A stretch of 19,380 bases of DNA from Escherichia coli (GCF_003334355.1 NZ_QOWP01000048.1), one strand, 5' to 3'; counted from the stretch's first letter, positions 3,006-11,879 are shown. Translations and numbers: made by a program. The notes: generated by a model not told the origin, from the letters alone.

Positions 3006-6113
<3,108 letters not shown>

Positions 6114-6180: not shown

Positions 6181-7359
6181 ATGCCTTCGCCCTCGCATCC
6201 CGTAGAACGCTTTTCTTTCAGCACCGCGCTTTTCGGGATGCTGGTTCTGACCTTAGGTATGGGTTTAGGCCGCTTCCTTTATACGCCTATGTTGCCCGTC
6301 ATGATGGCGGAAGGATCGTTTTCATTTAGCCAGCTCTCGTGGATTGCCAGCGGCAACTATGCGGGGTATCTGGCTGGCAGTCTGCTATTTTCGTTTGGCG
6401 CATTTCACCAGCCATCGCGCCTGCGCCCATTTCTGTTGGCTTCTGCCCTGGCGAGCGGGTTGTTGATCCTCGCAATGGCATGGTTGCTGCCATTTATTCT
6501 GGTGTTATTGATTCGCGTCCTGGCGGGTGTCGCCAGCGCCGGTATGCTGATTTTTGGTTCGACGCTGATTATGCAGCACACGCGCCATCCTTTTGTGCTG
6601 GCAGCTTTGTTTTCTGGCGTTGGCATTGGCATCGCACTGGGCAATGAATATGTTCTGGCAGGCCTGCATTTTGACCTCTCCTCGCAAACGTTATGGCAAG
6701 GCGCCGGGGCGCTTTCTGGCATGATGCTGATTGCACTTACGCTTTTAATGCCCTCGAAAAAACACGCCATCACACCAATGCCATTGGCAAAAACGGAGCA
6801 ACAGATAATGAGCTGGTGGTTACTGGCTATTCTGTACGGCCTGGCGGGATTTGGTTATATCATCGTCGCGACTTACCTGCCGCTCATGGCGAAAGATGCA
6901 GGCTCACCATTGTTAACCGCCCATCTCTGGACGTTAGTCGGCTTATCAATTGTGCCTGGTTGCTTTGGCTGGCTATGGGCAGCAAAACGTTGGTGGGCTT
7001 TGCCCTGCCTGACGGCGAATTTGCTGGTGCAGGCTATCTGTGTGCTGCTTACTCTCGCCAGCGACTCGCCTCTCTTGCTTATCATCAGCAGTCTTGGTTT
7101 TGGCGGTACCTTTATGGGCACGACATCTCTGGTGATGACTATCGCCCGCCAACTGAGCGTACCGGGAAATCTCAATCTTTTAGGCTTTGTGACGCTCATT
7201 TACGGCATTGGACAAATCCTCGGCCCGGCGCTGACCAGTATGCTCGGCAATGGAACATCGGCGCTTGCCGGCGCCACTCTCTGCGGCGCGGCGGCGTTGT
7301 TTATTGCTGCGCTTATCAGCACAGTACAATTATTTAAGCTGCAAGTGGTCACTTCATGA
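6181..7359 (+). CDS. yjiJ: MFS-like inner membrane transporter YjiJ (392 aa)
   Basis: 392-aa ORF, highly hydrophobic with many predicted helices. AAGG at 6171-6174 upstream of ATG 6181. Recognised as YjiJ. Confidence 0.85.
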
Positions 7360-7371
7360 GGAGTGTTTCCC

Positions 7372-7926
7372 TTACCACTCAAGAAATTCGACCGCAACCG
7401 TTGATGTCAGCCAGACCCCGTTTTCCGCTTGCCAGAAAGGGAGGCCTCGTTTCGCCATTTCCTGTGCTTTGACGGTTAAAATAACCGGCGATCCGTGTCT
7501 TGCTCCCACTTTGCGTGCCGTTGCTTCATCAGCAGAGAGATGTACGTAGTGACGCTCACCTGCAATCAGCCCCTGTTTTTTTATCTCGTCAAGGAAACGG
7601 CTTGCCGTACCGTGGTAGAGAAACTGTGGCGGTGTTTTTTCGGCAAAGGAAATAGCGACCTGCGAAGTCGAATGCCCCTGAACCGCGCGGATGCACCTAC
7701 CATCACTGGAATAACTAAAACGCTTTTTATCGCTGGTGGCAACCACGGTATCCAGCAATGCACGGGTTAACCGCTTGCCCGCTTTTTGGGCACAAAGTAT
7801 GAGCTTATCGATATCCGCCCATCCTTCACGGTCCAGTACGATACCAATCGCCTCCGGTTTGTGTCGGAGGACAAAACTTAAAAACTTGCTCGTATCCGCC
7901 AGCTCTTTTTCGTTGTACTTTGCCAT
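7372..7926 (-). CDS. kptA: RNA 2'-phosphotransferase KptA (Tpt1 family), 184 aa
   Basis: 184-aa ORF on the minus strand with Tpt1-like segments ([23 protein letters not shown]). AGGGA lies about 10 nt upstream of the ATG on the minus strand. Confidence 0.9.
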
Positions 7927-9329: not shown

Positions 9330-10502
9330 ATGATTGATTATACCGCAGCCGGTTTTACCCTGCTGCAGGGAGCGCATTTGTATGCGCCGGAAGATCGGGG
9401 AATTTGCGATGTCCTCGTCGCTAACGGCAAAATTATCGCCGTTGCCAGTAATATCCCTTCTGACATTGTACCGGACTGCACGGTTGTCGATCTCAGCGGG
9501 CAGATCCTCTGCCCAGGTTTTATTGATCAACACGTCCATTTGATTGGCGGTGGCGGCGAAGCAGGTCCCACGACGCGCACGCCGGAAGTGGCGTTAAGTC
9601 GTCTGACGGAAGCAGGCGTCACGTCAGTGGTTGGTCTGCTGGGCACCGACTCTATCTCTCGCCACCCGGAATCCCTGCTCGCCAAGACCCGTGCGCTCAA
9701 TGAAGAAGGCATCAGCGCCTGGATGCTGACCGGCGCTTATCATGTCCCTTCCCGCACTATTACGGGTTCCGTGGAAAAAGACGTGGCGATTATCGATCGC
9801 GTGATTGGCGTGAAATGCGCCATCTCTGATCACCGTTCTGCCGCACCGGACGTTTATCACCTGGCTAATATGGCGGCGGAATCCCGCGTTGGCGGTTTGC
9901 TCGGCGGTAAACCTGGCGTCACCGTGTTCCACATGGGCGACAGCAAAAAGGCGTTACAGCCTGTCTATGACCTGCTGGAAAACTGCGATGTGCCGATTAG
10001 CAAGTTGCTGCCGACCCACGTTAACCGCAACGTTCCGTTGTTTGAGCAGGCGCTGGAGTTCGCGCGCAAAGGCGGCACCATCGATATCACCAGCAGCATT
10101 GACGAACCAGTCGCCCCTGCCGAAGGTATTGCCCGCGCCGTTCAGGCGGGTATTCCGCTGGCACGCGTCACCCTCAGCTCCGACGGCAACGGTAGCCAGC
10201 CGTTCTTCGATGACGAAGGGAATTTAACCCATATCGGTGTTGCCGGTTTTGAAACGTTGCTGGAAACCGTGCAGGTGCTGGTCAAAGATTATGATTTCAG
10301 TATCAGCGATGCCCTGCGCCCGCTCACCAGTAGCGTAGCCGGTTTCCTTAACCTGAGCGGGAAAGGCGAAATTCTGCCAGGCAATGACGCAGACTTACTG
10401 GTCATGACGCCAGAATTACGCATTGAGCAGGTATACGCTCGCGGCAAGCTGATGGTCAAAGACGGCAAAGCCTGCGTGAAAGGAACGTTTGAAACGGCAT
10501 AA
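9330..10502 (+). CDS. iadA: Isoaspartyl dipeptidase IadA (amidohydrolase superfamily), 390 aa
   Basis: AAGGAG 6 nt upstream of ATG 9330. Metal-binding HxH motif in FIDQHVHLIGGGGE. Recognised as IadA. Confidence 0.9.
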   Translation: MIDYTAAGFTLLQGAHLYAPEDRGICDVLVANGKIIAVASNIPSDIVPDCTVVDLSGQILCPGFIDQHVHLIGGGGEAGPTTRTPEVALSRLTEAGVTSVVGLLGTDSISRHPESLLAKTRALNEEGISAWMLTGAYHVPSRTITGSVEKDVAIIDRVIGVKCAISDHRSAAPDVYHLANMAAESRVGGLLGGKPGVTVFHMGDSKKALQPVYDLLENCDVPISKLLPTHVNRNVPLFEQALEFARKGGTIDITSSIDEPVAPAEGIARAVQAGIPLARVTLSSDGNGSQPFFDDEGNLTHIGVAGFETLLETVQVLVKDYDFSISDALRPLTSSVAGFLNLSGKGEILPGNDADLLVMTPELRIEQVYARGKLMVKDGKACVKGTFETA

Positions 10503-10507
10503 ACGGT

Positions 10508-10554
10508 TGTCAGCCGCCCGAATGGACGTAGAATGCCCGCAAGGGCGGCTGACA
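10508..10554. promoter_or_regulatory. Perfect 12-bp inverted repeat (TGTCAGCCGCCC ... GGGCGGCTGACA) with 23-nt loop in the iadA-hypT spacer; possible terminator or processing/regulatory structure
   Basis: Read directly: arms at 10508-10519 and 10543-10554 are exact reverse complements. Begins 6 nt after the iadA stop and ends 13 nt before the hypT ATG. No U-tract follows. Confidence 0.5.
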
Positions 10555-10566
10555 GAGTAAAACGTA

Positions 10567-11478
10567 ATGGATGACTGTGGTGCGGTTTTGCATAATATTG
10601 AAACTAAATGGCTTTATGATTTTCTGACCCTGGAAAAATGCCGCAATTTTTCCCAGGCAGCAGTCAGTCGCAACGTCTCGCAACCGGCATTCAGCCGCCG
10701 CATCCGTGCGCTGGAACAGGCGATTGGCGTTGAATTGTTTAACCGCCAGGTGACGCCGCTGCAACTCTCGGAACAAGGTAAAATATTCCATTCGCAGATC
10801 CGCCATCTGTTGCAACAGTTAGAGAGCAACCTTGCAGAACTCCGTGGTGGCAGCGATTACGCGCAACGCAAAATTAAAATAGCCGCTGCACACTCTCTTT
10901 CCCTCGGGCTGTTACCGTCCATTATCAGCCAGATGCCGCCGCTCTTTACCTGGGCAATTGAAGCTATTGATGTCGATGAAGCGGTCGATAAACTGCGTGA
11001 AGGGCAAAGTGACTGTATTTTTTCCTTTCACGACGAAGATTTGCTGGAAGCGCCGTTTGACCACATTCGCTTATTTGAATCTCAATTGTTCCCCGTTTGC
11101 GCCAGTGACGAACACGGAGAAGCACTTTTTAACCTCGCGCAGCCACACTTTCCGTTACTGAATTACAGCCGCAACTCCTACATGGGGCGATTGATTAATC
11201 GCACCCTGACGCGCCACAGTGAGTTAAGTTTCAGCACCTTTTTTGTCTCTTCGATGAGCGAGCTTTTAAAGCAGGTTGCCCTCGACGGCTGTGGGATTGC
11301 CTGGCTACCGGAATACGCCATCCAACAAGAAATTCGCAGCGGGCAGCTCGTTGTACTGAATCGGGACGAACTGGTGATCCCGATTCAGGCCTATGCATAC
11401 CGGATGAATACCCGCATGAATCCAGTTGCCGAACGCTTCTGGCGTGAACTGCGCGAGCTGGAGATTGTGCTTAGCTGA
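10567..11478 (+). CDS. hypT: LysR-family hypochlorite-responsive transcriptional regulator HypT (YjiE), 303 aa
   Basis: N-terminal LysR helix-turn-helix ([39 protein letters not shown]). 303-aa ORF recognised as HypT. Confidence 0.9.
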
Positions 11479-11863
11479 CATTCTCCAGCGTCGCACTGCG
11501 CCAACCGCCATTATCCCAGACCAGATCAAACGTTAGCGATTCATCGTCGTGATACAGCATTATCTCAAGGCTGATCGCCAGAGTGTGGCAGTACGCTTCT
11601 TTCAAATTAACCTGCAACGCCGCAATCCGTGGCTCATGAAATAACAGTGCAGAACGCAGCTGACGGCAATACCAGCTCTGGAGATGTTTGTCGCTCGGGT
11701 TATGCACTTGCCACTCGGGCATGCCTGAAACAAGTAATGACGGTAATGCCGAATGAGGAGAATTAAAAAGAGTGAGGAGATCGCTGCATACTGATTTACG
11801 CAGCGGTGACGTTTTATTGCCTGAAATTTCAGGTAAAACAGCCTGAAGTGATTGGCGCATCAT
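11471..11863 (-). CDS. iraD: Anti-adaptor protein IraD (YjiD), inhibitor of RssB-mediated RpoS degradation, 130 aa
   Basis: Minus-strand ORF 11471-11872; starting at the 4th codon ([15 protein letters not shown]) gives 130 aa as recalled for IraD. The 3' end overlaps the hypT 3' end by 8 bp (convergent). Confidence 0.85.
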
Positions 11864-11879
11864 TTTGCGCACTCCTGAC

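Follow-up and report, generated by a model that had tools for sequence, protein, structure and literature searches.

The overlapping 3' ends of hypT and iraD in Escherichia coli: a probable by-product of rearrangement at the variable GimA junction

In the Escherichia coli sequence analyzed here, the genes hypT and iraD run towards each other and share the last bases of their coding sequences. Such an arrangement raises the question of whether the overlap is a device that couples the expression of two genes or a trace of how the locus was put together. The analysis was based on a stretch of 19,380 nucleotides (GCF_003334355.1 NZ_QOWP01000048.1), referred to as the window, which matches E. coli Nissle 1917 with 100% identity across the 1701 bases compared. 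The genes and their overlap are as follows.

10567..11478, plus strand: coding sequence of hypT, a LysR-family hypochlorite-response regulator of 303 amino acids ending ...ELEIVLS-TGA (ORF list, RefSeq, NCBIfam).
11471..11863, minus strand: coding sequence of iraD, an RssB anti-adaptor, 130-amino-acid 'A' allele (ORF list, RefSeq, NCBIfam).
11471..11478, both strands: the 8-bp overlap of the two coding sequences at their 3' ends, TTAGCTGA.

An earlier note on this DNA had placed the end of hypT on the plus strand at 11478 and that of iraD on the minus strand at 11471, with 8 bp shared, and these positions proved exact in the open reading frames, the RefSeq annotation and the NCBIfam matches. 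The TGA stop of hypT occupies 11476-11478 and the TAA stop of iraD is the TTA at 11471-11473 read on the minus strand. Each stop codon lies inside the last codons of the partner gene, and the claim that stop and last codons overlap on opposite strands is borne out by both reading frames. The RefSeq coding sequences of hypT and iraD in Nissle 1917 have the same two ends. HypT matched the NCBIfam model NF007488 with 696.5 bits (cut-off 301 bits) over residues 1-303 of 303, and IraD matched NF010726 with 300.7 bits (cut-off 198 bits) over residues 1-130 of 130. The notion that one stop had been misplaced in the annotation, and that there is hence no true overlap, has a negligible chance of being right, as the stops are fixed by the reading frames and the matches of both products to full-length curated family models extend to the last residue; with both ORF frames ending at these positions, an annotation artefact was ruled out. 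Opposite strands, shared 3' bases and two full-length genes characterize the pair as a short convergent overlap of coding sequences. The description of both products as stress-response regulators agrees with the RefSeq and NCBIfam product names, and IraD is documented as an antiadapter that shields RpoS from RssB/ClpXP (Park 2017, PMC5574718).

The junction between yjiD (iraD) and yjiE (hypT) is the published GimA locus, for which Homeier et al. 2010 (PMC2878320) give three patterns, namely GimA-positive, GimA remnant and GimA-negative. The window has the GimA-negative pattern, with iraD and hypT adjacent and with ptsP/pptE and ibeA sequence absent at the junction; K-12 MG1655 is also assigned to this pattern in that paper. 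A 201-nt query across the junction was used in a census of 5426 complete E. coli genomes, the E. coli representative genome being missing from our HypT scan of species-representative genomes, and the contiguous overlapping GimA-negative junction was found in 4880 of them. A ptsP-like 3' end stands between hypT and iraD in 512 of the 5426 genomes (9.4%), of which 247 carry ibeA, i.e. the complete ~20-kb GimA island, and about 265 carry a 372-bp ptsP (pptE) remnant. The genes do not overlap in either group, 0.4-20 kb plus a strong hairpin lying between them. The gene order in GimA-positive strains is hypT-nhaC(ibeT)-ibeA...dhaKL-ptsP-iraD (annotated examples APEC O1, VTB96937v and 702/18), and remnant strains have hypT, a 372-bp 'putative PEP-binding protein' pseudogene and iraD (examples 2014C-3338 and 3059). 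The 8-mer TTAGCTGA and an annotated 8-bp overlap were present in eight diverse E. coli, and the 8-mer was invariant in nine GimA-negative E. coli sequences.

Our census agrees in kind with Homeier et al. (PMC2878320), with the same flanking genes and the same three states; CFT073 and 536 are given there as strains of the remnant type. The remnant is given there as 342 bp (ORF), compared with the 372-bp RefSeq pseudogene. The paper is silent on the overlap of the coding sequences, on an IraD that is three residues longer and on a junction palindrome in the GimA-negative state. As a separate observation, the GimA remnant looks like the product of a deletion between direct repeats of CTGCAGAA, of which the first lies 9-16 nt 3' of the hypT stop and the second inside ptsP/pptE (locus records L078, 3090-3130; L075, in ptsP ~370 nt before the stop; L077 and L079, 3100-3125); this origin was not found in the passages of PMC2878320 consulted.

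Comparison of the junctions between these states defined two further features.

11471..11482, minus strand: the 3' extension of IraD-A, 12 nt (Asn128-Val-Ser plus TAA), from the junction alignment and the ungapped comparison of IraD-A with IraD-B.
11482..11483, no strand: the haplotype breakpoint; the sequence to its left is common to GimA-negative and GimA-positive strains, and to its right lies iraD-A here and GimA (ibeT/nhaC side) in GimA-positive strains.

In the junction alignment, the hypT tail GTG CTT AGC TGA followed by CATT is common to GimA-positive and GimA-negative strains up to 11482, after which they diverge, and matches to the contiguity query end at query position 103, i.e. window position 11482. 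The extension at 11471-11482 is the reverse complement of the last two codons of hypT, its stop and CATT, and GimA-positive strains carry the same stretch beside hypT without iraD. The iraD of GimA-positive and remnant strains is a 127-amino-acid allele (IraD-B, ...WHRTMPQ*) with its own stop. A hairpin AACGCGATACG...CGTATCGCGTT follows it in a 47-bp spacer (-25/-27 kcal/mol, z -3.6/-3.2), and folding and alignment found this native hairpin to be absent from the window junction. IraD-A (130 amino acids) equals IraD-B (127 amino acids) plus Asn-Val-Ser without a gap, the B stop falling on Asn128, and NCBI has separate 130- and 127-amino-acid IraD models. Because the 12 extra bases of iraD-A are hypT flank common to GimA-positive strains, the overlap has the appearance of read-through that followed a rearrangement.

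The two alleles are 79% identical in DNA (~21% difference), compared with 95-98% for the iadA, hypT and uxuR flanks of the same strains. The proteins are ~77% identical (by tblastn, with the B-like iraD of E1V33, an Escherichia sp., and of E. whittamii as targets), and the iraD of these two hardly differs from the B allele. For reference, the iraD-A compared occupies 11471-11863 of the window and the iraD-B copies occupy 3525-3908 of locus record L078 and 12419-12802 of L075. The GimA-negative haplotype comprises iraD-A, idlP, ytiD and yjiC, and the region upstream of iraD (11864-12645) has only 33% G+C, compared with 51% for the window. The divergence of the alleles suggests an old polymorphism or an import of the A haplotype. 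Since iraD-A and iraD-B are ~21% apart and the flanks 2-5%, the GimA-negative haplotype may be an imported block that was already overlapping, rather than the product of a deletion in situ.

We consider it likely that the 8-bp overlap, which marks the GimA-negative allele of a variable junction, is a structural by-product of rearrangement rather than a regulatory device. A deletion or recombination with its breakpoint at 11482/11483 would have taken away the stop and terminator of iraD itself, leaving the iraD frame open as far as its next stop, which lies 8 nt inside hypT. The new junction would happen to form a 42-nt imperfect palindrome that includes both stop codons, and the hairpin could form in both mRNAs after the ribosomes leave. 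It would most likely serve as a pause, termination or 3'-end-protecting element without a U-tract, the mRNAs overlapping by roughly 50 nt. Where hypT transcription continued past the hairpin, Rho would probably terminate it on the C-rich untranslated RNA, and cross-talk between hypT and iraD would be expected to be weak.

An origin of this type has many parallels. Huvet and Stumpf (2014, PMC4161906) counted 75 convergent overlapping gene pairs in one E. coli genome and ascribed them to movement of stop codons. Like those, the hypT-iraD pair lies on opposite strands and shares a few 3' bases, one partner being extended to a stop inside the other; unlike that class, the stop shift at hypT-iraD is tied to a specific breakpoint, 11482/11483, and non-overlapping alleles still circulate in the species. 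The hypT-iraD overlap is thus unexceptional within a common class, and is best accounted for by how its locus evolved. What is mildly new is the model of its origin, the palindrome at the junction and the distinct 21-bp overlap of E. whittamii. Another tight convergent pair in the window is yjiJ (plus strand, ending at 7359) and kptA (minus strand, ending at 7372), with a 12-nt spacer (7360-7371); the last 140 nt of yjiJ (7221-7331) give some of the window's most stable 71-nt folds on both strands.

The structure at the junction and the sequence that follows hypT are described by two features.

11453..11494, no strand: imperfect palindrome of 42 nt with both stop codons apical (repeat search, folding).
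11479..11578, plus strand: C-rich, G-poor untranslated RNA 3' of the hypT stop (C 0.31-0.35, G 0.19, C/G 1.9).

The arms of the palindrome lie at 11457-11468 and 11478-11489 (11 of 12 positions paired), flanked by an outer GCGA (11453-56) and TCGC (11491-94), with G11490 bulged. HypT and IraD have similar ends (...LEIVLS* and ...LENVS*) because both hairpin arms are coding. A 71-nt fold at the junction reached -32.7 kcal/mol on the plus strand and -34.6 kcal/mol on the minus strand (z -3.2/-3.4). After correction for G+C it ranked 14 (plus) and 6 (minus) among 3862 windows, alongside intergenic terminator regions, and about 10 places of comparable structure occur in the 19 kb. Allele variants of the hairpin range from -26 to -35 kcal/mol. 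The hypT end gives -13/-10 kcal/mol in GimA-positive strains and -11/-15 kcal/mol in E. whittamii, the strong hairpin being specific to the GimA-negative state. Analysis of alleles revealed that the stem is kept in most, and that O157:H7 and 08-00022 break one central pair, with no compensation, through synonymous changes of iraD Leu126 from CTG to CTT or CTC at a cost of 3-7 kcal/mol; these uncompensated changes argue against strong selection on the hairpin. Relative to the junction of Escherichia sp. MOD1-EC7003, that of E. coli has two changes (CCGGAA to CTGGAG) by which wobbles or mismatches become Watson-Crick pairs. A quasi-palindrome template switch that perfected the hairpin was considered and found unsupportable, only two changes being specific to the iraD-A junction and their direction being unclear.

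A scan for canonical terminators from 10300 to 12700 returned no terminator-like site. Runs of five or more T are absent within 600 nt 3' of the hairpin on the plus strand, and the sole run on the minus strand is distant (10638). With neither a U-tract nor a terminator-like site, the hairpin fails the test for a canonical intrinsic terminator. An Rfam scan of 10300-12700 gave nothing relevant and one chance-level snoRNA match. Among the entries listed from the Term-seq of Adams 2021, iraD, hypT, yjiE, idlP and coordinates beginning with 45550-45553 were absent save for unrelated 455530 entries, which is weak negative evidence; by extrapolation from the HusR site, the junction falls at about 4.5552 Mb in MG1655. 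A putative role of the hairpin in termination or in protection of 3' ends is plausible. The C-rich, G-poor composition of 11479-11578 means that Rho could end hypT read-through there, and this stretch is a plausible Rho-loading region.

Other members of the genus extend the range of states at the 3' end of hypT. Among the species-representative genomes scanned for HypT, iraD was found to adjoin hypT only in Escherichia. The overlap measures 21 bp in E. whittamii, where HypT and IraD both have other tails and the hairpin is missing; in Escherichia sp. E1V33 the genes are 426 bp apart, with a remnant between them and no overlap. In MOD1-EC7003 (locus record L002, 3900-3990), iraD is cut to codons 107-128 beside hypT with TTAGCTGA retained, and uxuR-like sequence, as judged by eye, appears shortly after the iraD remnant; the reading of TTCCGGCG in this strain as a vestige of the ptsP remnant was dropped, as a homologue of the iraD-B 3' end explains it equally well. 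In Citrobacter, Salmonella, Pluralibacter, Entomohabitans and Hafnia, hypT converges with an amino-acid racemase of the CuyB/Asp-racemase family (NCBIfam CuyB-like, 225-228 bits; locus records L005-L016, at about 3877-3917), either at a spacing of +4 to +7 nt or with overlaps of 16 bp (Entomohabitans) and 18 bp (Hafnia). At its C-terminus HypT varies strongly, with unrelated tails across these genera. Unrelated partners at tight or overlapping spacing indicate that such convergent junctions arose repeatedly at the hypT 3' end. A 605-bp contig filed under 'Bacillus coahuilensis m4-4' (NZ_ABFU01000118.1) carries the E. coli hypT end (100%), iraD (98.5%) and the 8-bp overlap, and almost certainly represents E. 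coli DNA contaminating that assembly.

The direction of the change might also be the reverse, the overlap being ancestral in E. coli, GimA having been inserted at 11482/11483 and the 3' end or the whole allele of iraD having been replaced later. This order of events would suit the fact that the overlapping state is by far the commonest, the GimA-negative pattern occurring in all phylogroups except part of B2 (PMC2878320), and CATT at both GimA ends is readable as a target duplication. We regard it as unlikely all the same, because iraD-A does not resume at the right end of GimA, where an intact and divergent iraD-B follows instead, equipped with a stop and a hairpin of its own, and because iraD-B-like alleles with the remnant exist in Escherichia outside E. 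coli (E1V33, E. whittamii); moreover, GimA is without mobility genes, and Homeier et al. argue that it was present ancestrally and has undergone reductive evolution (PMC2878320). A further alternative concerns not the order of events but what has kept their product: the palindrome and overlap could be a compact bidirectional terminator without a U-tract, the overlap being retained by selection since the hairpin is needed at both 3' ends. A stability like that of intergenic terminator regions (ranks 14 and 6 of 3862), folding on both strands, the restriction of the hairpin to the GimA-negative junction and the better pairing given by CCGGAA to CTGGAG relative to MOD1-EC7003 are all in line with it. 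The bidirectional terminators of Ju et al. 2019 (e.g. ynaJ-uspE), as presented in bioRxiv 10.1101/2022.10.23.513370, need an RNA hairpin yet look unlike intrinsic terminators, and resemble this junction in being a convergent pair with a hairpin at the meeting point on both strands and no U-tract; they differ in having mapped overlapping 3' ends and intergenic spacers, whereas the hypT-iraD hairpin is wholly coding and known from sequence. Both arms being coding sequence weighs against such selection, and the 5' arm is invariant even where the 3' arm is missing, so that it is kept for HypT or by descent and not for pairing. Synonymous polymorphisms in large lineages break a stem pair uncompensated, and the hairpin was found by inspecting this very spot, in a window with about 10 comparable places. 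A selected terminator is accordingly possible but doubtful in our judgment. That the overlapping state reaches 90% might in principle be due to selection instead of history.

Whether the overlap matters for expression also depends on where the two genes are controlled, for which the following features are relevant.

11860..11943, minus strand: idlP (ORF27), the 27-amino-acid leader peptide of iraD and site of CsrA control (annotation, translation, PMC5574718).
12059-12202, minus strand: ytiD, a small upstream ORF (annotation).
12199-12249, minus strand: an ORF of 16 amino acids (annotation).
10507..10534, plus strand: the best sigma-70-like match in the iadA-hypT spacer, TTGTCA-16-TAGAAT, 10 of 12 positions, a consensus match only.

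The start of iraD is ambiguous between the annotated ATG at 11863 (130 amino acids) and an upstream GTG at 11872 (133 amino acids). This in-frame GTG (11863-11872, MRK-MMRQ...) lies three codons 5' of the ATG, within idlP, and the 3' overlap is unaffected by the choice. The 16-amino-acid ORF at 12199-12249 is presumably the equivalent of ytiC, judging by its position. In a study of AZT, ytiC is described as cotranscribed with iraD (PMC11228462), which we infer to take place from the distal promoter P1. The stop of idlP and the start of iraD overlap as ATGA at 11860-11863 on the minus strand, the translational-coupling arrangement of Park et al. 2017; with the hypT overlap, iraD is thus overlapped at both ends. 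Control of iraD is known at its 5' side, through promoters P1 and P2, ppGpp and CsrA acting via the leader peptide IdlP (PMC5574718); DnaA and SspA (cited in PMC11228462) and HusR (PMC12844172) control it too. The reported HusR (YnfL) site between ytiD and idlP, CCGCTAGTATATTCTG at 12096-12111, is unchanged in this B2 strain. Further upstream, the DUF2686 gene at 12571-13321 (yjiC in K-12) is a frameshifted pseudogene in the Nissle 1917 annotation.

The earlier note had further proposed that the transcripts of the two genes must overlap, and that this could couple their expression through collision or antisense effects; induction of one gene would then lower the other. Its premise of an obligatory transcript overlap stands, since both mRNAs necessarily enter the partner coding sequence by 8 nt or more, and go further in practice, no intrinsic terminator-like site lying in 10300-12700. 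Head-on collision of RNA polymerases is documented at convergent pairs (bioRxiv 10.1101/2022.10.23.513370), and after AZT iraD rises 14-fold and the upstream ORFs up to 260-fold (PMC11228462), which makes strong antisense transcription into hypT conceivable. There is a precedent in E. coli in the 3' coding sequence of arfA and the 3' UTR of mscL (PMC10070815), likewise two stress-related genes placed tail-to-tail with complementary 3' regions, where deletion of arfA changed mscL mRNA more than two-fold. The co-localization of mscL and arfA is enriched in Enterobacteriaceae, however, whereas adjacency of hypT and iraD was found only in Escherichia among the genomes scanned and is polymorphic within E. 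coli. A conserved arrangement of hypT with iraD was not what our comparison found: 9.4% of E. coli genomes (512 of 5426) keep both genes yet separated, the overlap is 21 bp in E. whittamii, a 426-bp spacer replaces it in E1V33, and a racemase takes the place of iraD in other genera. Fusions of iraD'-'lacZ that span just nt -498 to +20 of iraD, and so do not include the junction, reproduced the control by P1/P2, ppGpp and CsrA (PMC5574718). Within the literature that could be searched, nothing relevant linked hypT/yjiE with iraD expression or antisense transcription. Moreover, HypT is said, in work attributed to Drazic et al. 2013, to be switched on post-translationally by methionine oxidation, and on that account modest changes in its mRNA may matter little. 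Overlapping convergent transcripts occur in 276 of 370 convergent E. coli operons, with a mean of 286 nt (PMC4161252), and are routine whether or not the coding sequences overlap; the overlap of the coding sequences is in itself no evidence for coupling. Overall, coupling through the overlap is improbable. A more specific form of it, in which loss of GimA made a bidirectional terminator without a U-tract, so that hypT and iraD limit each other by collision in ~90% of strains and GimA-positive and remnant strains escape, is speculative and very improbable. If true, it would provide a natural allelic series for interference by convergent transcription between two stress pathways. With iraD and the ORFs upstream of it induced 14- to 260-fold, AZT treatment is where an effect on hypT would be sought.

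For an overlap that is probably a by-product of rearrangement, the consequences are in part practical. Adding a C-terminal tag or a cassette to hypT or iraD at its native 3' end alters the other gene; an iraD-3xFLAG-Km strain has been built at the native 3' end (Park 2017, PMC5574718), and the promoters of such cassettes would be expected to read antisense into the partner gene. Typing for GimA also distinguishes a change at the C-terminus of IraD, 130 or 127 amino acids. If the hairpin acts as a bidirectional terminator, GimA-negative and remnant strains would be ready material for tests of convergent interference. The scientific weight of the finding is small, as it adds one more short convergent overlap, with an origin that can be read from natural alleles. 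It offers a clean, datable example of how convergent overlaps originate, through a stop codon lost at a rearrangement junction, in a species where non-overlapping alleles persist and whose sister species has a second, separate overlap.
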